The notes under the pieces were generated by a model. That model was not told where the DNA came from. It searched no databases and worked only from the letters and a program-made list of their open reading frames with translations. From a virus (lineage: Duplodnaviria > Caudoviricetes), in IMG/VR virus record IMGVR_UViG_3300036987_000305, positions 1-61,949 of that record: a DNA stretch of 61,949 bases, one strand, 5' to 3'. The number at the start of each line of letters is the position of its first letter. The stretch's first letter is position 1. Of the stretch, positions 22,310-32,089 are shown one piece after another. The translations under genes and the position numbers were made by a program.

Positions 22310-25300
22310 TTATTTTTTGTCTTCCATCTCCTTTTTTTTCCGGATGACCGGCGGCGTTATCCACCGGTTTTTCTGTAGCTTTTCGTAAACGTTCTCGTAG
22401 TCCTTCGCCGGTAGCTCTTTTTCCCATAGGATTAAAAGCGCGGCTCGCTCCGCCGATGTTGCTGCCGACCGGAAGGAGTTAACATATACGTTACCCTCTT
22501 TTCGTGTTCCCAGGTCTCTATACCGGCCGTAGAATTCCTTCAACGATTGGTTGGTCTGTCCAGTTTCCACTGCTGTGAGCCAGAGCTCTCTCGCAGTTTC
22601 GAAGTCGGCACCTTCCCCCTTGTTGGTCGCATCGATCATTTTGTCTTTCAGATCGAGGGATTTATTCGCAGCGATCTTCCGCTCCTCATTGACGACGTCC
22701 TGGGCTCTCTCCCTGGTGCCGGTATCGGACACACGAAGCAATCGACCTATCGTGTTAAACGGGACGATGCCCAGGACGTCTTTAATTTCGTTGTTCATTT
22801 CCTCGACTTTTGTGCCCTGAAACTTATATACCAGCCCCCCGAACAGGCCGTTCCAAGTCTCTTTCGACAGGGATTCAAACGCTCGCATTCCGCCTGCCTT
22901 AGCGACCTCTTCGCTCATCGTGGGCGACCCGTAATACGTGTTCACGGGGATAACTCCGTTCGCGTAGTACCGGGTCCAATCGATGACCGAAGAGATCAGA
23001 GGGTGCAGGTTGTACGGCTGCGCCCCGGTCACTAAACCCAAGGCGCCCATAGAGCCCGTGAAGTCCCGGGTGATGGCCGCGTCGACAATGGCGCCGGTCA
23101 TCTGACCGGAATAACTTTGAGGGATCGTAATAAATACCCCCTTATCGCCCAGCATCCCAATGAGCACTTGGGCTTTTTTACCAAGGATCCATTCCAGTGC
23201 TGTCCCGATCCACGCGGTAGGGATAGGGATCGTCGTGTACATTCGCCGCAGGTATCTTCCCGCTTTCTTCGCTGTCTTCGCAATCTCCCCCTCCTCCCCG
23301 CCCCACCATCCAGCGACCATCGTTGCGAAGAGGATATGGGGCATCACATTCGCGATAAAGGTTTTCATCGCATACGTGGCGGGCTTGTTCTTGATCGCTA
23401 CAGAGGTGGAGACGAGGTCCTGCGTCGCGATATTCGCGAACGGGAAAATGATCTCCGTCCACTTTGTAATCAAACCGCCCGAGAGGCTGTTCGGCGTTCC
23501 GGCGCGTTCGATAATGGCCACTGTCTTCTCGTGTTTCCCGAGGCGAATTCCGGTTGCCTGCTCTTTCAGGGTGACCGCTTCTTCCGCGGCGTACTTTGCC
23601 CAGCGCTCCCCCGCCTTCCCGAGCTTCCCGACAAAGCGAAGGTACATCGGAATCAGGAGGAAGCGGTCGAGCTTCGTCCTCTCGAGGTAGTCGATCCCGC
23701 GTTTCATGATTCCGCCCACTGTGTTGGGGTATTGAGTAGGATCCGCCATTCTCCGCAGCATCTCTTCCTCCTGCTGGTGGTATGACGTATCACTATTCCA
23801 GAATCGTTCCGCGGTCAGTTTCTTTTCGCGAAGGAGGCGCAGCTCACGCTCAGTCGTAATGCCCCAGCCGGCTTTAATGGCGTCCGTAAAGGTCCGTTTG
23901 TACCCCTTCATCAGGTATCCGGATACCTCGGGCATCTTTTGCCAGGTTCCGAAGGAGTCCCGGATAGGATTCATCAGGGTCCAGCCGAGATTCCATTGGA
24001 TGAAGAGCCTGGCGATAAAGGCCTTCCCCGCCATGCCCAGCTTCAACAAACCGTGGGCGCGATCCGGATTGAATGCCCACATATCCGCGAGCTCTTTGTC
24101 GATGTAATACCCTTCGGTCTTCCCATTTGGGGTAACAACGATCAGCCCATAGTCCGCATCGGGTGAAGGCATGAAAACTCCGCCGGCGCCAGGTCGTGCC
24201 TTGATCACGTCCGGAAGCGTTCCGTTCTGTTTCATCTCCCGAAATTCTTCCATGGTCTCGGCGACGTTGCCCTCCGTGATCAGCCCCTCAAGGACGCCCA
24301 TCTTCGTTTTATGGTGCTCGGCGGCGCGAATGAGCGCCATGCCTTTCGCCAATGTGGCGCCGAATACGTTGGCCACATCCCCGAGCATTCCGTACTGCTT
24401 GTAGATGTGCGCAGTGGGTCCGGATCCGTATCCAGTCCCGTAGACTTTGTCGATCTCGTACTCCAGATTCACGAACGTTGCGTAATCGGGGTTGTTGAGC
24501 ATGTAATCAACTAACTTTTTAGGGAGGAAGTCCGCGTCAGCGACCACGTTCAGCACATGCTTCTCGTACAGCGCCCGGAATTTAAAGGCGTAGTCGGCGA
24601 GCCTGTTGAACTTGGCGTCGCCCATATCCTGGCGCATGCGCTCCAGGTGCGCCTTGGCCGCCGGGCCACTCTCGCCCCCGGGGTTGTTAATGTCGGCGCG
24701 TTCTGTAGCAGCACGGTTTTGCCCCATGTATTCATGCAGATCAACTATGGAGATCCCCTCCTTGTCGGCGGCTATAACAATCTCATCGTCAACCTGCTTA
24801 GAGAAAGCGCTGACGATCGAATTGATATACGGCAGTTCGGTGAACCAGTATTCGATCCTGTGCTCATCGCGTACTTTTCGCCCCTCCTTGGAGAGCCGGC
24901 GGGCGATGTCAAAAGCCTTCTGTTCTTTTCGGACAAACGTCCGCATGACTTCGTGCCACAATTTCGATCGGCCGAATTTCCGCTGCTCGGTAAGAAGATT
25001 CGTTTTTAGGTTTTGGATCTCGACATCCCGTTGGGCCATGCCCCGGTAGCGCTCCCTGCGCTTGGTCATGACCATGGCGGGGTCCTTTACCAGCTCTTGG
25101 AGACCATCGTAGACTTCCTTGAAAGTCGGTTTACGGTCCAGGTAGTTGAAGAACGCCTTGGTGAATGTCGGGGCAGTGGTCTCCATCAAGCGCGGATTAT
25201 TCAGCAGTACAGAGATTGCGTCCGCATAGAGCTCCTCGGAGGACCAGCGATACCGTGTATACTTTCTATCCAGGTCGGGGTTAAAGGGCTTCCAGCGCAT

Positions 25301-28300
25301 GGAGAGCTTCTTCAGCTCCGCGATGATCGTCTCCTTCTCGAAGAGTTGCCGCTTTTGGATCTCCTCTTTCAGAAGCTCGTTAAAGCGCTTCTTGATTTCG
25401 GCTTCCGTAGCGTACTTCCCGGGCATCCGGACTTCAACGGTTTCGGTAATGGTCTTCGTTCCGATCTGCCGGCCGACGCCGCCGAGGGCCTTCACGCGCT
25501 CGTCGACGATCCCCTTCATGGCCTGGAGGACAACGGCTTTCTTCGTTGCGGAATCAGCGAGCTGCATGAAGCGGAGAATAATTGCGGGGTCGTTGGTTCG
25601 GCCGCGCATGATGTCAAGAATCATCTCCGGGGTAATGGACGTCTGCTCATACTCCGGAACCTCTTTGATGATCTCCTGAACGATAACCCTGTCTGGAATT
25701 TCCTCGGCCTTCAGCTGGCGTTCGGCTTCTGCCCGCATACGCGCGCGATCGGCATCCGTGAGAATGACGTTCGGGGAATCCGGGTATTCCGCAAGAAGAG
25801 AGTTGTCGTACTTAGACGCTGAGGCCAAGCGACCAAGTATATTCCCCCGCTTCAGATCCTTGTTAGGCAGCCAATCGGCAAGGTGGCCAATCTCGTGGGC
25901 GAGCGTCTTCGCGACGTCTGCCTGGGACATGGAGGCAAGGACGCCAATCCGGCCTTTCGCGGGAAAGAATCTACCAACGGCGCCCTTGAGGAACTTCATG
26001 ACCTTCGGGGCTTTGCCGTCCGAAAGTTCTTTGACGAGCTGGACCAGTTCCGGAAGTTCGATAGCCGAACGAACCTGTTTCAGGTAGGCTTCCCGCTGGG
26101 TTTCTGTTGACGTAGTCTCCGCATACCCACCCATATCGGCGAAGTCCAGATCTGCGGAATCCGTGCCGGTATCGACGGTTGTGCTGGTAGGATCATTGCG
26201 CAGTAACGGCAAAGCCGCAGAGCCGGCGGCTTCCCGTGTCACCTTTACAGGTTCGAAGATTGCGACTGCCTGGTAGGGCGTAGAGACAAATCCGATGTAC
26301 CCGGCCGCCTGGATTTTCTTTTCGAACAGGAGATTCCGGGCTTTATCGCCGAGGAGTTTCGCTTTCTTCATCTCCGCGTCGGTCGGGTAGAGCTTTAACG
26401 GATCCTCCCAAGAATCATACAGATCGTTTCCGTTCACCTGCGCAGAGTACCGGTATGGCCCAACGTACGGTTCCGCGGTATATGTCCCGAATCCCCAGTA
26501 GGTTTTATCCAGCCAAAGTTTTGGGTGCATCTGCTTGGAGGCACGTTCAGCACCGGCTCCCTTCGTGCCATGCTTGGACGGATCCGTCGCCTTCATTTTT
26601 TCCTGGTTCGACCAGTGCGTAAGGGTGACGATCTTCCCGCGGAATTCTTTGGGGGCGCCCTGCCCCCGGGTCTCGGACACGGCGTCTTTTTTCGCGTCCT
26701 TTAACGCTTTCTCCGCGGCTTGGTATTTTCTCATCTCCTCTTTTACCTTCTTCAGGTACTCGGTAAATCTTCGAAGAATGTTCTGATCATCCTTGCTCTG
26801 GTCCCCGAAGACAGTTCGCGTGGAGCCTCCGGTTCTTGCTTGCTCAATTCCGAGAATATCAGATTGGCTAAATCTCCCTTGCCCGTCTCGGTGAGAGCGG
26901 GAGTTGAATTGCTTGACGGTGTCATAGAGTTTTCCTTTCTTCGCCGTTACTGCCCGGCGAGCGGATACGAGGTAGTCCTCGACGTTAGCAATATCCAGGT
27001 GGGATATGCTGTTCAAAGCTAGGGTAACAGGATCCTCCGCTGCAAAAAGATCAGCTGTGGAAGAGGTATCCACTTTCGGATCCAATGCGTCGTACAGCAC
27101 CCGCACGAAGGACCACATGGTCTCCTGAACCTCCGCGACTTTCAGACCCATACTATTCGCGACTTCTCGCGCTCTCGCGGCAAAGGCTATGTACATGGGG
27201 TTATCAAGTAGCTGCTTCACCGAAGTGTTGTAGTCCCGCAGTCCGGTGATGGGGTCGGCGGGATTCAGAAGCTCGAATGCCATATGCCGGGCCACCCACA
27301 TATCCGCGGTGGCCAGATCAAGAACGCCTCTGATATTCAGGGAGTAGTTCGGTTGCTTAAAGTTCCCCAACTTCCCCAAGTACTGCCCTGAGAATACGTC
27401 GATGATCTTCTTCCGAATAACGTCAGCCCGAATCCCCGCTTTGAATTTATCGTTGAAAATCTTTTCCAGTTTCGATACGTCACTCGGGCGTTTGGCTTTA
27501 TCCCATGCCATCCAGGCGCGAAGAGCAACTTCCAGATTCTCCCCGGGTTTCATCCCGACGGACGTCGCCGCTAAAAGCTGCGCGAATGTTGCGTGCTCGT
27601 AGGGCATCGTCTCGATCGGGAAGAGATGGTTGATGAAGCGCCGGCAGTTTTCATACCAACCAAGGCCTTCTTTCCCGGCTTTGGAAATGGCGGCCATCTC
27701 CGTAGGGTCGAAGAAGTTATAGAGCTCCAGAACTTTTCGAAGCCGCTGGAGCTTTGTCTCTTCGTTCGTTCCGAACACCGCTTTGATGTTGTGGTCAGTG
27801 AACCATGCCGGCCCGGCGAGTTTGGCGATCTTCTTCCAGGCGGATCGTTCTGCTGGAGAGAGGGCGGTTTCGGCCTGCTTCAAGGCAGGATGCGCAGTCT
27901 TTCCAGACTCCAGGGCGGCCATGATCCTTCGTTCCTCATCCACTGAGGAAACTGAGGACGATGGGACCTCGTGGAATTTGTACTCCTCGTCTTCTTGTTG
28001 TCCCGGGCGAAGATCCTTAATCGCTCGAGTTTCCTGGTAGACTTTTCCCTCAAATTCTCGGTGGATCGTCTCATCAGTATGGAAGGATTTCTTGCCCACG
28101 TTCTCATCAACATCGCCGGCTTCTGCTACCGCGATCTTACTCGCCAACTCCGACCCCTGGTAAATGGCCAAATTATAGACGTTCGCATGGGAGACGATGT
28201 CCGAGTTATCCCTCAGGAACTGGAGGGTGCGCTCATAGGTCTCCGATGTTTCTTCCTGGATCCCCACGATGATGTTCGGAATGAACTTGATTCCGGTATC

Positions 28301-30745
28301 GCGGAGTTTCTGGGCGGCTTTATCGATCAGCGCTTCGGTATGCGGCTTATGAAGCGGCCGCAGAATATCGTCATTGTAGCTTTCGACGCCAAGCTCCACG
28401 AACTTTATCCCGGATTCTGCCAGCCATTCAGTATCAAACTTGTTGAAGGTCCCGGCAGTTGTCTGGATGATGAACCCATCGAAGTCGGGATTCTCAGCCT
28501 TTATCACCTTGTTAACTTCGGAAAGCATCTTATAATTCGGCGCCTGGCCAAACGTCTTATCGTTCAGATATACCAATTTCGCTTTCAACTTACCGAAAGA
28601 CCGGGCCTGTTGGAAGATGGCCTCCTTGGGCGGGGTCGTCAGGTCTTTCGGCACCGTGCAAAATGCGCACTTGAATTTACACCCTTGGGACATGGTCAAT
28701 CGTGGGATGACTTCGGATCCTTCAAAGTGCCGGTAGTCAGTGCCTTCGGTGTATTGCAGCCCGTACTTATCCGCGTAAGACTGGAGCGAATCATGCCACG
28801 TCGCATTTGGCAGATCGGCCATCTTGCTTTCGACATACCCGCCAATATCGATATTCCCAGCGTAATCAGCGGCCAGATCCTTGATCAGATTCTGATTCAC
28901 GTCGATCGCTGAGAAGACCAGGTTTGTATACCCAGACTCCGCAATGAAACGCTTCGCGGCTTCCATGTCGCGTACGACATAGACATCCGCATTCGGATTG
29001 ATGTGCGAGATAAACCCCATCCATTGCGGGATCTCCCAGAAGTCTGTTAGGCGTTTGTACCCAGGCACCGTCGCATACGTCTCATCATAATACTGCACGG
29101 ATTGGTCCGTCGGATCCGTCTTCCCGAGGAGAGTCGTTCCGAATTGGACCATGAGGGTTCTACCATCATTTGATGTAGATTGCACATCAAGATCCGGATC
29201 CGCCGATCGGCGTACCCAAGGATTGGACACGCTGTCGGTTTTCTTTACCGCGTCGGGATAAGTGAAATGCGGCCGGGAGACTGCGTTTCCGGGGATCTCG
29301 GCTGCGAGTTCCGGGGAGTATTGAACGTATTGTCCGCTTCGTCCTTGGACCTGTCCCGATACGCTTCCGCGCCCTGGAACTTCACCTTGATCCCCAAGGT
29401 CTTCAGCTCTTTGAGAAATTCTGCTCTGTCCATCCGGTACCTCCTCTAGCACGGTTTCGGTTTTGGCTTCCCCTTCTTCACTTATACCACCCCCTTCTTG
29501 CACAGTTGCCCCAGGTTGAACGATCGCGGCTGTAGACGGACCTTCAGCCGTCCCTGTTTCGGCGGTCGTTCCTGGGGCGTTTAATTCCGAAAAAGTAAAT
29601 TCTGATTTGGGCTTCGCGCTCGGGAGCATGGAGACCGGGGTGTCAGGTGCAGGCGCCGCTGGACGGACGCGATTATACACTTCTGTTGAGGTAGCCAAAG
29701 CCCCCGCCTGCAACGACCCGACTACCAGCCCCTGCGCCGCAGCTTCTGGGACTCCTTCCTTCCAGGGTTTCCCCATCGCGAGATTCGTAAAGATCTGTTC
29801 TTGCAGTGACTGGGGCATCTCCTCAAGAGCCCCTTCTTTGAATACCCCCTTAGCGATTGTCTTTCCGGCGTTCAGCAAGGTGCTACGCTCCCCCGCCCCC
29901 AGCAGGGCTTTAACCGCAGAAACTTCTACGTCCTTCAGCCCGGGGATCAGAGATGTTCCGTAAGATATGGCGGCCGTTCCGGCTCCCGCCGCTACCGCAG
30001 GTAAGATGCTTTGCCCCCAGGTACGTCCTTCTTGCCGCGCTCCTTCCTGGATCTGACCAGCTGTGATGGCCCCTTCGGAAATGGCACCAGCTTTCAAGAG
30101 CGTCTTCACCATCACGGGGGAGGAGAGGAACGCCTTGACCGCGGCAGTATCGCTAAGCGCAATCCCGGCGCGCTTCAATGCGGTGACAGCAACGGTTCGA
30201 ACCCCGCCCATTATCCCCAGCATCATCGGGGCGGATTCCAAAACCCCGCCGGCCGCGACAGACGGATCCTTGACAAGTGCCACAACGGTGTCCACGAAGC
30301 CCTTGGCTTCCGAGACACGGCGGTTTGCTTCCTTGCGCTCGGGGCTGTATTCGTCCTCGAGGATCTTCTTCGTGGTTTTTGGATCGTATCCGACCGCCTC
30401 CAGCGCTTTGCCGGTGAGATTCCCGGTGAACATATCCGCAATACCGACCATGCTCTCCCCGAACCCGACAACGCCTTTGGCCACATCCACGGCGACGTTC
30501 TTGACAGTCCCCATCGCACCATTTGGATCGGCGCCAATCGGCGCTTCAGCCGGTCTTTCCGGGACGACACTCATCGTAGTACGCGACGTGGCCATACTCT
30601 CCGGAGTGCGAACAGAGATCGTCGCACCCGTCGCGGACAGCGGACCAAGATATTCTATCCCCGACTCCTTTTCATCCAGGGGGCCGAGGTATTCTACGCC
30701 GGATTTCTCTGTAGGCAATGGCCCAAGGTACTCGACTTCAGGCAT
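22310..30745 (-). CDS. Giant polyvalent internal virion (ejection) protein: B12-type radical SAM, HhH-glycosylase-like, ART-like and zincin domains plus a helical C-terminal region
   Basis: SQGCKFKCAFC (CxxxCxxC), LNDKTF, ELGVES; GWY...LLAATS...ATADMWVAR...QETMW; LTHWS...GYIG...AIFEP; AHEIGH...EELYADA. It is the last of three ejection-type genes. Confidence 0.82.
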   Translation of the reverse strand: MPEVEYLGPLPTEKSGVEYLGPLDEKESGIEYLGPLSATGATISVRTPESMATSRTTMSVVPERPAEAPIGADPNGAMGTVKNVAVDVAKGVVGFGESMVGIADMFTGNLTGKALEAVGYDPKTTKKILEDEYSPERKEANRRVSEAKGFVDTVVALVKDPSVAAGGVLESAPMMLGIMGGVRTVAVTALKRAGIALSDTAAVKAFLSSPVMVKTLLKAGAISEGAITAGQIQEGARQEGRTWGQSILPAVAAGAGTAAISYGTSLIPGLKDVEVSAVKALLGAGERSTLLNAGKTIAKGVFKEGALEEMPQSLQEQIFTNLAMGKPWKEGVPEAAAQGLVVGSLQAGALATSTEVYNRVRPAAPAPDTPVSMLPSAKPKSEFTFSELNAPGTTAETGTAEGPSTAAIVQPGATVQEGGGISEEGEAKTETVLEEVPDGQSRISQRAEDLGDQGEVPGRGSVSGQVQGRSGQYVQYSPELAAEIPGNAVSRPHFTYPDAVKKTDSVSNPWVRRSADPDLDVQSTSNDGRTLMVQFGTTLLGKTDPTDQSVQYYDETYATVPGYKRLTDFWEIPQWMGFISHINPNADVYVVRDMEAAKRFIAESGYTNLVFSAIDVNQNLIKDLAADYAGNIDIGGYVESKMADLPNATWHDSLQSYADKYGLQYTEGTDYRHFEGSEVIPRLTMSQGCKFKCAFCTVPKDLTTPPKEAIFQQARSFGKLKAKLVYLNDKTFGQAPNYKMLSEVNKVIKAENPDFDGFIIQTTAGTFNKFDTEWLAESGIKFVELGVESYNDDILRPLHKPHTEALIDKAAQKLRDTGIKFIPNIIVGIQEETSETYERTLQFLRDNSDIVSHANVYNLAIYQGSELASKIAVAEAGDVDENVGKKSFHTDETIHREFEGKVYQETRAIKDLRPGQQEDEEYKFHEVPSSSVSSVDEERRIMAALESGKTAHPALKQAETALSPAERSAWKKIAKLAGPAWFTDHNIKAVFGTNEETKLQRLRKVLELYNFFDPTEMAAISKAGKEGLGWYENCRRFINHLFPIETMPYEHATFAQLLAATSVGMKPGENLEVALRAWMAWDKAKRPSDVSKLEKIFNDKFKAGIRADVIRKKIIDVFSGQYLGKLGNFKQPNYSLNIRGVLDLATADMWVARHMAFELLNPADPITGLRDYNTSVKQLLDNPMYIAFAARAREVANSMGLKVAEVQETMWSFVRVLYDALDPKVDTSSTADLFAAEDPVTLALNSISHLDIANVEDYLVSARRAVTAKKGKLYDTVKQFNSRSHRDGQGRFSQSDILGIEQARTGGSTRTVFGDQSKDDQNILRRFTEYLKKVKEEMRKYQAAEKALKDAKKDAVSETRGQGAPKEFRGKIVTLTHWSNQEKMKATDPSKHGTKGAGAERASKQMHPKLWLDKTYWGFGTYTAEPYVGPYRYSAQVNGNDLYDSWEDPLKLYPTDAEMKKAKLLGDKARNLLFEKKIQAAGYIGFVSTPYQAVAIFEPVKVTREAAGSAALPLLRNDPTSTTVDTGTDSADLDFADMGGYAETTSTETQREAYLKQVRSAIELPELVQLVKELSDGKAPKVMKFLKGAVGRFFPAKGRIGVLASMSQADVAKTLAHEIGHLADWLPNKDLKRGNILGRLASASKYDNSLLAEYPDSPNVILTDADRARMRAEAERQLKAEEIPDRVIVQEIIKEVPEYEQTSITPEMILDIMRGRTNDPAIILRFMQLADSATKKAVVLQAMKGIVDERVKALGGVGRQIGTKTITETVEVRMPGKYATEAEIKKRFNELLKEEIQKRQLFEKETIIAELKKLSMRWKPFNPDLDRKYTRYRWSSEELYADAISVLLNNPRLMETTAPTFTKAFFNYLDRKPTFKEVYDGLQELVKDPAMVMTKRRERYRGMAQRDVEIQNLKTNLLTEQRKFGRSKLWHEVMRTFVRKEQKAFDIARRLSKEGRKVRDEHRIEYWFTELPYINSIVSAFSKQVDDEIVIAADKEGISIVDLHEYMGQNRAATERADINNPGGESGPAAKAHLERMRQDMGDAKFNRLADYAFKFRALYEKHVLNVVADADFLPKKLVDYMLNNPDYATFVNLEYEIDKVYGTGYGSGPTAHIYKQYGMLGDVANVFGATLAKGMALIRAAEHHKTKMGVLEGLITEGNVAETMEEFREMKQNGTLPDVIKARPGAGGVFMPSPDADYGLIVVTPNGKTEGYYIDKELADMWAFNPDRAHGLLKLGMAGKAFIARLFIQWNLGWTLMNPIRDSFGTWQKMPEVSGYLMKGYKRTFTDAIKAGWGITTERELRLLREKKLTAERFWNSDTSYHQQEEEMLRRMADPTQYPNTVGGIMKRGIDYLERTKLDRFLLIPMYLRFVGKLGKAGERWAKYAAEEAVTLKEQATGIRLGKHEKTVAIIERAGTPNSLSGGLITKWTEIIFPFANIATQDLVSTSVAIKNKPATYAMKTFIANVMPHILFATMVAGWWGGEEGEIAKTAKKAGRYLRRMYTTIPIPTAWIGTALEWILGKKAQVLIGMLGDKGVFITIPQSYSGQMTGAIVDAAITRDFTGSMGALGLVTGAQPYNLHPLISSVIDWTRYYANGVIPVNTYYGSPTMSEEVAKAGGMRAFESLSKETWNGLFGGLVYKFQGTKVEEMNNEIKDVLGIVPFNTIGRLLRVSDTGTRERAQDVVNEERKIAANKSLDLKDKMIDATNKGEGADFETARELWLTAVETGQTNQSLKEFYGRYRDLGTRKEGNVYVNSFRSAATSAERAALLILWEKELPAKDYENVYEKLQKNRWITPPVIRKKKEMEDKK
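26752..26925 (-). CDS. Nested +1-frame ORF (57 aa) inside the polyvalent gene
   Basis: AGAAAGGA-7nt-ATG; MTPSSNSTPALTETGKGDLANLIFSELSKQEPEAPRELSSGTRARMIRTFFEDLPST*. Translated by hand; below the ORF-track size cutoff. Confidence 0.5.
   Translation of the reverse strand: MTPSSNSTPALTETGKGDLANLIFSELSKQEPEAPRELSSGTRARMIRTFFEDLPST
29245..29433 (-). CDS. Nested +1-frame ORF (62 aa) inside the polyvalent gene
   Basis: GAGGAGG-7nt-ATG; MDRAEFLKELKTLGIKVKFQGAEAY...; the host frame is a low-complexity G/Q/R/S linker here. Confidence 0.55.
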   Translation of the reverse strand: MDRAEFLKELKTLGIKVKFQGAEAYRDRSKDEADNTFNTPRNSQPRSPETQSPGRISLIPTR

Positions 30746-32089
30746 CTATATCTCCTTGTTTCCGTCCCATGAAACTACTCTACCGTTCACCTTGTATCTG
30801 CCGGGGGGTTTCCCCGCCAGGGGAGATTGCGGCCTGGAGCTTGCCGAAGTCGCGGAAGGAAGGTCCGCGAACGGGCTAATAAAATTAGCCGGAGTCAGAG
30901 GCCTTTTTGCCGGGGCGCCGGGCGTTTCTGTCTTTGCCGCCCACGCCGGATTGTACGGATTCTTTTTATCGAACTTGGAGCCACTGATCTTTGCGCGATC
31001 TTCCGCCGCCACGAATTCATCGAAAGGCATATTCGCGTATTTCAGATCCTGGATCCACTCTTTGTACCTGAGGGACTGCGGGGAAGTTTTCTCCGCGCCC
31101 TCTTTGTACTTCTTTCCCTGGCCGAGGACCTTCGTTACCACTCCGTCTTTATTGATGACAGACGTTTGAACGACTGTTTCCCCGGAGGCATCGGTCGTGG
31201 TCACGTCCTTGATGACGTTCCCCTTGTCCTTTATAATGCCCTCCCACTCTTTCGCCCATGCGCCCTGATCAGCCTGGATTCTCCCGGCTTTTACGTCTGC
31301 CAGTTTCCCGGCATAGAACGATTCAAATGCGGTATTAGGAATATCCTTCGCCTTATTCGTTTCGATCACCTTCAGGATATCCTTGACGCCATCGAGTTTC
31401 CCATCGATCAATCCGATCTGTGCGATCATTTGGAGGGTCTTGTTGTCTTTCAGGATCCCCTCGTTCTCTTTGATCCAATTCTGGACTTCGATGCTGCCCC
31501 GCATCTTGTCGAGATTCCCGGTCAGCCCCTGGGTCTTTGCCTTCGCATCTGTGGCGATCTGGGCCAAGGCCGCGACTTTCTCCGGGGGAGCCCCGGCCTT
31601 CATCGCGTCCGAATAGTTCTTCAGCGCTGTCGCTTCCTCCCTCGTAGCTACGCCGAGGAGCACGGGCTTCTCTGCGTCAAAGAGTTTCAGGTCCGTGGCC
31701 ATCGCTTGGGAGAATGCCTCCTGATCTGCCATCGTGAGGGTTGAGGGGTCTTTCCCCCCGAGAAACGCTTTCACGTTCTCCATGTGCATAAGCTGCTCCT
31801 CGGGGGCCATCCGTTGAAAGAGCGGACCAGCGGCGGGATTCCAAGGACGCTTGAGTGCATCGAGCCTCCGCCGCTTTTCGGCGACATCCAGCTGGGACCC
31901 CTCCACCGCAAGATCCGCGGCTTTCGTCTGCGTCTCCAAAAGCTTCGTCCGAAGGGGGGCCTCTGCCGCGTCCCGGGCGGCCTTGTCCTGGTTCTGCATC
32001 ATCTGCTGGACAACGCCGGCATTCTGCAACCCTCCGGTAATTCCCGAAGCAACCCCGGCGAGAGAACTTACATTGCTGAGATTTGCCAT
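30746..32089 (-). CDS. Putative internal virion/ejection protein
   Basis: Helical A/K/Q-rich protein; C-terminal GRYKVNGRVVSWDG; lies between the tail and giant-protein genes. Confidence 0.7.
   Translation of the reverse strand: MANLSNVSSLAGVASGITGGLQNAGVVQQMMQNQDKAARDAAEAPLRTKLLETQTKAADLAVEGSQLDVAEKRRRLDALKRPWNPAAGPLFQRMAPEEQLMHMENVKAFLGGKDPSTLTMADQEAFSQAMATDLKLFDAEKPVLLGVATREEATALKNYSDAMKAGAPPEKVAALAQIATDAKAKTQGLTGNLDKMRGSIEVQNWIKENEGILKDNKTLQMIAQIGLIDGKLDGVKDILKVIETNKAKDIPNTAFESFYAGKLADVKAGRIQADQGAWAKEWEGIIKDKGNVIKDVTTTDASGETVVQTSVINKDGVVTKVLGQGKKYKEGAEKTSPQSLRYKEWIQDLKYANMPFDEFVAAEDRAKISGSKFDKKNPYNPAWAAKTETPGAPAKRPLTPANFISPFADLPSATSASSRPQSPLAGKPPGRYKVNGRVVSWDGNKEI

Follow-up and report, generated by a model that had tools for sequence, protein, structure and literature searches.

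A probable small gene nested out of frame ahead of the radical SAM module in a giant structural gene of an uncultured phage

The nested open reading frame and its host gene

The DNA analysed in this study (hereafter the window) is the whole virus record IMGVR_UViG_3300036987_000305, which is 61,949 bases long and has a CheckV completeness of 100%. Its minus strand carries a gene for a protein of 2811 amino acids (aa) with a radical S-adenosylmethionine (SAM) domain, and an open reading frame (ORF) of 62 codons lies wholly inside this host gene, in the +1 frame, just ahead of the radical SAM module. Comparison with relatives suggests that this ORF is probably a real gene with a translation start of its own. 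The features concerned are listed below; the predicted local distance difference test (pLDDT) is the confidence measure of the structure models.

22310..30745, minus strand: host gene, an ORF of 2811 aa found by ORF calling, in the virion structural module and with the radical SAM domain inside
29245..29433, minus strand: putative nested small gene, 62 codons and TAA, in the +1 frame of the 2811-aa ORF
29440..29446, minus strand: putative Shine-Dalgarno (SD) sequence GAGGAGG, 6 nt ahead of the nested ATG
29446..29448, minus strand: TAG stop in the +1 frame, four codons ahead of the nested ATG
29320..29433, minus strand: conserved core of the predicted small protein, codons 1-38, from the family alignment, the frame test and the AlphaFold2 (AF2) model
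29245..29319, minus strand: Pro/Ser-rich variable tail and stop of the small ORF, where constraint is carried by the host frame
29303..29434, minus strand: host-frame linker, aa 438-481, of low complexity and modelled without order, from pLDDT, composition and a flat codon pattern
28007..29302, minus strand: two-domain radical SAM module, aa ~482-913 (pLDDT 68-97, model residues ~45-476)
29481..29489, minus strand: TGGTATAAG, an extended -10-like element, in the window only and probably not functional

The nested ATG is at 29433..29431, at host codon 438, and the order on the minus strand is GAGGAGG-TACCGG-ATG. An earlier sequence-only reading of this DNA had described GAGGAGG and the ATG just after it as opening a 62-codon ORF in the +1 frame, and the sequence reads exactly so. 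The predicted product begins MDRAEFLKELKTLGIKVKFQG and its TAA stop is at 29247..29245; across the same region the host frame reads EEVPDGQSRISQRAEDLGDQGEVPGRG. Because of the TAG at 29446..29448, the +1 frame is closed to ribosomes arriving from upstream. The earlier reading had also placed an extended -10 element upstream. The string TGGTATAAG does sit at 29489..29481, but a promoter role was not borne out: a promoter scan of 28900..29900 called no promoter-like site, and the element is absent from the three other loci that carry the ORF (L001, L016 and L017, described below). The element is probably non-functional, and the nested gene requires no private promoter.

In the window, GGAGG followed by ATG at a spacing of 4-9 nt was found 48 times, compared with 15.0 ± 4.2 times in shuffled sequences (0 of 100 shuffles reached 48), and 20 of the 48 matches open ORFs of at least 100 aa. 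These counts indicate that the phage uses this signal at real gene starts, with about one third of the matches (~15 of 48) attributable to chance. The +1 frame of the host gene contains 102 stops in 2811 codons. Within its own genome the nested ORF is unremarkable, and its significance comes only through the relatives.

Relatives carrying the ORF

With the host-frame protein around the site as the query, three relatives were obtained from viral contigs and three from metagenome contigs, with identities of 49-54% in the best matching segment. Searching with a radical SAM module profile gave 17 viral loci, three of which repeat L001-L003 by contig name; L040-L043 were left out, having the same reading as L039 over the compared stretch. 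The distinct set thus consisted of 16 relatives and the window (17 loci).

The ORF was present at the homologous place in 4 of the 17 distinct loci, namely the window, L001, L016 and L017. The nested ORFs of the last three have 59, 54 and 64 codons, respectively, begin with ATG and encode visibly similar products, and the nested ORFs sit just ahead of a conserved host-frame motif, Y-x-R-G-V...W-V-R-Q-S. An ATG start was seen in all four loci, and GGAGG lies exactly 6 nt before it in three of them (the window, L001 and L017). A +1-frame stop directly touches the ATG in L016 and L017. The distance from the ATG to a conserved DR..F motif differs by 0-3 codons among the loci, and the nested stop coincides in all four with a host-frame GTA-A or GTG-TAA (Val) position. 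The host frame over the SD reads E-V in 3 of the 4 loci, though the rest of the linker is unconserved. The sequence-only reading had proposed a small out-of-frame protein with its own start signals and had named conservation in related phages as a check. The relatives support it: all four ORF-bearing loci keep the ATG, an SD-like sequence and an open +1 frame, and no linker in this group lacks the start or is interrupted by a +1-frame stop.

The radical SAM modules of L001, L016 and L017 are only 49-52% identical to that of the window, and tree paths among the ORF-bearing loci exceed one change per site, a distance at which unselected sequence would be randomised. A maximum-likelihood tree was built from 400 aa of the module in 16 loci, L003 being omitted (124 aa of module). 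The four ORF-bearing loci fell on one side of a single branch, with support of 88/91; one change suffices in 86% of the bootstrap trees, and none of 500 label shuffles was as low. The tree is unrooted, and the group is a clade only with a root outside it. The N-terminal parts of the host proteins before the ORF vary in length and content (~440 aa in the window and ~1360 in L001), and only the radical SAM module adjoins the ORF in all four loci.

Other searches added no locus. A scan of viral contigs with profile A1 matched 68 stretches, none of which was confirmed; one degenerate DNA pattern designed for more members gave no stretches and another gave three unrelated chance matches; and a search of genome contigs returned a single distant radical SAM match only.

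Reading frame under constraint

The frames were compared over the six pairs formed by the four loci with DNA, with the following values.

Core (first 37-43 codons), +1 frame: aa identity 0.37; differences at codon positions 1/2/3 of 0.48/0.39/0.64
Core DNA, host frame: aa identity 0.28; codon positions 1/2/3 of 0.57/0.56/0.52 (flat)
Core DNA, +2 frame: aa identity 0.24; codon positions 1/2/3 of 0.66/0.62/0.75
Small-ORF tail, +1 frame: codon positions 1/2/3 of 0.48/0.49/0.47 (flat)
Small-ORF tail, host frame: codon positions 1/2/3 of 0.45/0.34/0.61
Control, 440 host-frame codons downstream, host frame: codon positions 1/2/3 of 0.33/0.24/0.61

In the N-terminal half of the small ORF the +1 frame, not the host frame, shows the codon signature of purifying selection, and over the tail it is the host frame that is constrained. 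Ten control stretches, each of 40 alignment columns, all had a higher identity in the host frame (0.51-0.70) than in the +1 frame (0.24-0.38).

The structure of the host protein was modelled over aa 438-929 with AlphaFold from a 16-row alignment (mean pLDDT 80.8). Residues 438-481 (model residues 1-44) had pLDDT below 50, with means of 24-30 for blocks of 10 residues, and order began at about residue 482. The host-frame peptide over the core consists of G, P, S, Q, E, R, K and A to 74% in the window and to 74-83% across the loci. The switch of constraint to the host frame in the tail matches the modelled order that begins after aa 481. On these data the shared DNA is divided between the two proteins, with the ordered part of each facing the disordered part of the other.

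A family of small proteins

A phmmer search with the 62-aa product against 1.84 billion representative proteins gave one hit, a protein of 62 aa from one 577-base contig (E 3.4e-12, 64% identity). A five-member profile searched against 5.8 billion proteins found, among 32 candidates, four proteins of 56-80 aa, P0003 to P0006, with E-values of 7.1e-20, 3.7e-18, 3.8e-17 and 2.0e-13; P0005 had been called as a gene on a 26.8-kb contig. Together with the products of the window, L001, L016 and L017, these make eight family members. Their pairwise identity is 25-70%, and R3, F6, L10, G21, R28 and D31 are invariant. The window product and P0003 share 30 of the first 39 residues and 6 of the last 23, and a semi-conserved [DE][ND][ST][LF][FS] motif is found where core and tail meet. 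All eight members are free of cysteine; the charge is roughly balanced, the N-terminus is charged (MDRAEF) and the tail is Pro-rich. An AF2 model from the 8-row alignment has a helix at residues 3-12, a loop, a helix at 22-32 and then unstructured sequence, with a mean pLDDT of 63. The core is tentatively modelled as a helix-loop-helix, possibly a helix-strand-helix.

The small protein had no match in Pfam, PHROGs or NCBIfam, and Pfam at E up to 10 returned one chance-level hit over all eight members. A sequence profile against the PDB gave a best E of 0.66, ESM Atlas scores were at most 0.81 (lead level only), and in tblastn against GenBank phages the similarity to Caulobacter jumbo phages was at chance level (E 0.6). 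Longer proteins with the core motif were absent among 7998 scored candidates, which is weak evidence. By sequence, the eight members appear to form a new small-protein family without relatives in Pfam, PHROGs, NCBIfam, the PDB or GenBank phages.

The radical SAM module as a neighbour and possible partner

Pfam Radical_SAM (PF04055) matched the host protein at aa 685-844 with E 1.6e-15 and 58.1 bits, against a cut-off of 29.5, and a CxxxCxxC motif, CKFKCAFC, is located at aa 689-696 (28658..28681, minus strand). The modelled fold is a Rossmann-like domain followed by a radical SAM barrel, and Foldseek matched it to MtaB, AprD4, MgmA, MiaB, RimO, TsrM, CysS, TokK and OxsB, with E from 4e-14 to 1e-8 and TM scores of ~0.45-0.52. 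On this motif and predicted fold the module is assigned to the radical SAM superfamily. No subfamily was assigned, all NCBIfam hits of the module being far under the curated cut-offs. No Pfam family other than Radical_SAM exceeded its cut-off in the 2811-aa protein (E up to 0.1), a search that a divergent domain could escape. No homologue of the module was found in GenBank phages. The module is built into giant proteins (1500 to >3100 aa) of the structural module in a group of uncultured phages of 62-167 kb, L001-L052.

The top structural match of the module is PDB 9a6d, titled as an integrative model of MtaB with YvfG. If YvfG is a small partner, the entry would be a precedent for a small protein on this fold.

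Co-folding of the small protein with the 420-aa module gave a score of 0.42 (runs of 0.42, 0.56 and 0.40), and the best control scored 0.01. The pLDDT of the partner was 42-45 and the agreement of contacts between runs was at least 17%. In calibration, 58 of 80 solved complexes and 2 of 110 mismatched pairs attained the mark, but a pass at or below 0.60 was wrong in more cases than it was right, except where the guess had been likely in advance. Co-folding with a flanking domain had been suggested by the sequence-only reading; the mark was indeed passed, at 0.42 against 0.01 for the control, but by the calibration the support is weak.

Evaluation of the explanations

In our preferred explanation the ORF is a genuine, selected, independently initiated gene nested on the same strand, which the comparisons make likely. 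This judgement is based on the conserved ORF, ATG and SD, the codon-position pattern of the +1 frame, the restriction of the ORF to one phylogenetic group and the independent homologues in the databases. Ribosomes would start at GGAGG-6 nt-ATG within the late mRNA of the giant structural gene and would then read 62 codons in the +1 frame. The product would be a small, soluble, cysteine-free protein with a conserved core in the first ~38 residues, and the Pro/Ser-rich tail may be a mere +1-frame readout up to the first stop. The core would thus be placed opposite the disordered, unconserved linker of the giant protein and the unconstrained tail opposite the start of the ordered radical SAM module. 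We infer both the translation and the function of the small protein from sequence.

Several observations weigh against this explanation, and some of them are what would be expected if the SD-ATG and the open +1 frame were accidental and the likeness among loci were due to shared descent or to constraint on the host frame. In the host gene, 6.4% of the 62-codon stretches in the +1 frame are stop-free and three ATG-ORFs of at least 62 aa occur in that frame; about 15 of the 48 GGAGG-ATG matches are expected anyway. The SD-like sequence of L016 is weaker (AAAGGAAAAG) and further upstream. The six pairs of the frame comparison are not independent and cover ~40 codons, and aligning peptides frame by frame flatters whichever frame is aligned; the gap between 0.37 and 0.28 is modest, and 0.37 falls within the range of the +1 frame as a by-product elsewhere (0.24-0.38). 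P0003-P0006 are known as protein sequences alone, not from their DNA context, the small protein was modelled by AF2 with low confidence (pLDDT 63), and no family, fold or literature match points to a function for it. The other 13 of the 17 distinct loci have stops or unrelated sequence in the +1 frame, and no copy was found elsewhere in four near-complete genomes of relatives without the ORF, the L001 record serving as the positive control. Even so, an accident is quite unlikely. Where the +1 by-product identity is 0.24-0.38 the host frame is at 0.51-0.70, unlike in the core, where the host frame, at 0.28, with a flat pattern and modelled as disordered, cannot be the source of the +1 conservation. 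All four loci retain the ATG and an SD across more than one change per site. By chance, a +1 stretch as long as the observed one would be free of stops with probabilities of 0.064, 0.118, 0.033 and 0.029 for the four ORF-bearing genes, with a product of ~7e-6 if the four are independent, and database E-values go down to 7e-20. A programmed +1 frameshift of the prfB type, with the SD 2 nt before the would-be P-site codon, would instead yield a truncated N-terminal product with an alternative C-terminus of 62 residues. An SD-like sequence does stand close before the frame junction in 3 of the 4 loci, and its spacing to the junction resembles that in prfB. This explanation is nevertheless highly improbable: a shift site needs no ATG, yet all four loci have one at the junction, despite a distance to the DR..F motif that varies by 0-3 codons; the codons that would occupy the P site are not the same (CCG, CCG, UUA and UUA) and would re-pair poorly in the +1 frame; the 0-frame A-site codons, GAU or AAU, would be ordinary ones; +1-frame stops touch the ATG in two of the four loci (L016 and L017); and a slippery heptamer for a return shift is present in L001 only (1 of 4). 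A return frameshift or termination-reinitiation into the host frame was also considered and rejected, as no slippery heptamer is conserved and no host-frame ATG lies around the stop (other start codons were not systematically searched).

If the nested gene is real, its function and origin allow several readings. Our best guess is that the small protein, made alongside the giant protein, binds the adjacent radical SAM module in the producing cell, where it would help the module to assemble or fold or would gate its activity; this is suggested by position and, weakly, by the co-fold model, and we consider it possible, with the odds against it. The sequence-only reading had proposed an inhibitor, immunity factor or chaperone acting on the neighbouring enzyme, a role that may be suggested by the same two points. 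It could alternatively be the substrate of the radical SAM domain, like the precursor of a ribosomally synthesised and post-translationally modified peptide (RiPP), the core being the leader and the C-terminal part being modified. The small ORF is immediately ahead of the module, its N-terminal half is conserved and its C-terminal half variable with the semi-conserved [DE][ND][ST][LF][FS] motif at the junction, the co-fold contact, though weak, is in keeping with it, and an HExxH motif is found in the host protein at aa 1617-1621; PMC13434306 cites peptide-modifying enzymes in which radical SAM and HExxH parts are fused. We nevertheless hold this role to be improbable, for the eight members contain no Cys, the tail has no invariant aromatic residue (Phe follows the core in some members only) and the tail of the small ORF is without +1-frame constraint. 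Moreover, no domain of the SPASM or PqqD type, which are peptide-recognition-type domains, was among the Pfam hits at E up to 0.1, and the fold of the module matches methylthiotransferases and cobalamin-type enzymes generally, not peptide maturases specifically. The probability not taken by the helper or gate and by the substrate goes to roles without a name. As to origin, the sequence-only reading had called the small protein overprinted; compatibly with a functional gene, the small gene might instead be the older one, once free-standing, with flanking genes fused across it so that the linker of the giant protein is the overprinted novelty. The composition of the linker (74-83% G/P/S/Q/E/R/K/A) and its pLDDT below 50 are what a frame that has only recently come to be read typically shows, the amphipathic helices of the +1 frame look ordered, the giant proteins are modular with N-terminal parts before the ORF as different as ~440 aa (window) and ~1360 (L001), and the gene call of P0005 on its 26.8-kb contig would be easiest to understand if nesting there were incomplete. 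For spanins, it has been proposed that separate genes became embedded ones through stop loss (PMC6139136). On the other hand, no free-standing homologue was found in the near-complete genomes of the four relatives, in the window genome or in GenBank phages, and a restricted distribution, such as this ORF has, usually marks the younger frame (PMC8227390). An older small gene is thus conceivable, but we would not favour it.

Under the preferred explanation, that of a genuine nested gene, its absence from 13 of the 17 loci and from the four near-complete genomes indicates that the small protein is dispensable for this kind of phage. The family profile at E up to 10 matched none of the loci without the ORF. 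In L003 a host-frame stretch, EDYLKENHPALLNKIQERVDKYQG, was alike by eye and was considered as an in-frame counterpart of the core; it was rejected on this null result of the profile. Since 13 of the 17 loci do without the ORF, the small protein is an accessory and not a core part of the radical SAM enzyme.

Surroundings of the host gene and the source record

The host ORF lies between tail and tail-fibre genes, and its neighbours match portal/adaptor, head, tail and tail-fibre PHROGs. In the PHROG search, phrog_30335 matched the N-terminal part of the host protein at aa 70-356. The N-terminus itself contains EYLGPL three times at a 13-residue spacing (MPEVEYLGPLPTEKSGVEYLGPLDEKESGIEYLGPL; aa 5-36, 30638..30733, minus strand). 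The ATG of the giant gene touches the TAG stop of the preceding 447-aa gene, and AAGGAG stands 6 nt before this ATG (30743..30766, minus strand), an arrangement that suggests translational coupling in a structural operon.

Two further motifs were observed within the giant gene. A second GGAGG-N5-ATG is at 23759..23771 (minus strand) in the host frame (EEEEM); it may give internal initiation of a 483-aa C-terminal product, or may be a chance occurrence. An HExxH motif, HEIGH, is at aa 1617-1621 (25883..25897, minus strand), ~770 residues past the radical SAM domain, and no Pfam protease family matched it in the scan of the host protein. The giant ejected RNA polymerase of phage N4 has an HExxH motif in its C-terminal domain, according to PMC13434306.

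Metagenome runs of groundwater and of coal, belonging to at least two studies, contained contigs letter-identical over 28300..30300, with zero variants; one of these runs may be the source sample. The identical contigs therefore gave no variants from which selection within the species could be read, and none of the listed runs holding DNA identical to 28300..30300 was an RNA run.

Comparison with known systems and significance

The arrangement resembles that of the lambda Rz/Rz1 and T7 18.5/18.7 spanins, in which a larger phage gene wholly encloses one of ~60 codons that runs on the same strand, is in the +1 frame and has its own SD; late expression and a Pro-rich, poorly structured part are further points of likeness (PMC6139136). 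Unlike Rz1, the small protein has no signal peptide and, with no Cys in any of the eight members, no lipobox, by the criterion given in PMC6139136. The host, unlike Rz, is no membrane i-spanin of ~150 aa in a lysis cassette but a protein of 2811 aa that belongs to the structural module and has a radical SAM domain, and no sequence similarity between the small protein and Rz1 or other spanins was found with PHROGs and Pfam. The possibility of an embedded o-spanin was rejected, given the lack of a lipobox Cys, the charged N-terminus and a host gene that is not an i-spanin.

Gene E within gene D of PhiX174 is likewise a gene wholly within another, in the +1 frame, of restricted distribution and with one disordered partner easing the dual constraint (PMC8227390). 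It differs in that constraint at the present locus is partitioned rather than shared, and in the kind of host, which here is a giant virion protein with several domains from a tailed phage of ~62 kb. PhiX174 E has a hydrophobic membrane segment, and the small protein has none of that kind. Frameshift sites of the prfB/dnaX type also have an internal SD just before the change of frame. The present junction is unlike them in its conserved ATG, in having no conserved slippery codon and no in-frame stop or slow codon, and in the +1 stops touching the ATG. As with RiPP precursors and the MtaB-YvfG pair (PDB 9a6d), a small protein is encoded beside, and possibly contacts, a radical SAM module of the MiaB/MtaB/cobalamin type, but the small protein showed no relationship to such a partner in sequence or fold.

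To our knowledge, most claims of hidden ORFs prove to be chance, and gene finders cannot call fully nested genes on the same strand, which makes such genes invisible in phage annotation. The nested ORF described here passes the comparative test and adds what appears to be a new family of eight small proteins; the nested gene is of a known kind, a nested phage gene, while the family itself is new. It appears to be a clean case of cheap sharing of DNA, an ordered segment of one protein lying opposite a disordered segment of the other. By its position directly ahead of the radical SAM module, the small protein is the foremost candidate for something that assists, holds back or feeds this enzyme. 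In an extended version, which we regard as unlikely, the nested protein would be the dedicated partner of a virion-borne radical SAM enzyme, either a gate on it until packaging or ejection or a peptide that it modifies. We know of no description of a partner encoded out of frame within the enzyme's own gene, though the literature searches were not designed to exclude one. Were this the case, recombination could never separate the pair, the arrangement would tie an enzyme to its regulator or substrate in a new way, and the small protein would offer a handle on the job of the radical SAM enzyme inside a phage particle from anoxic groundwater.

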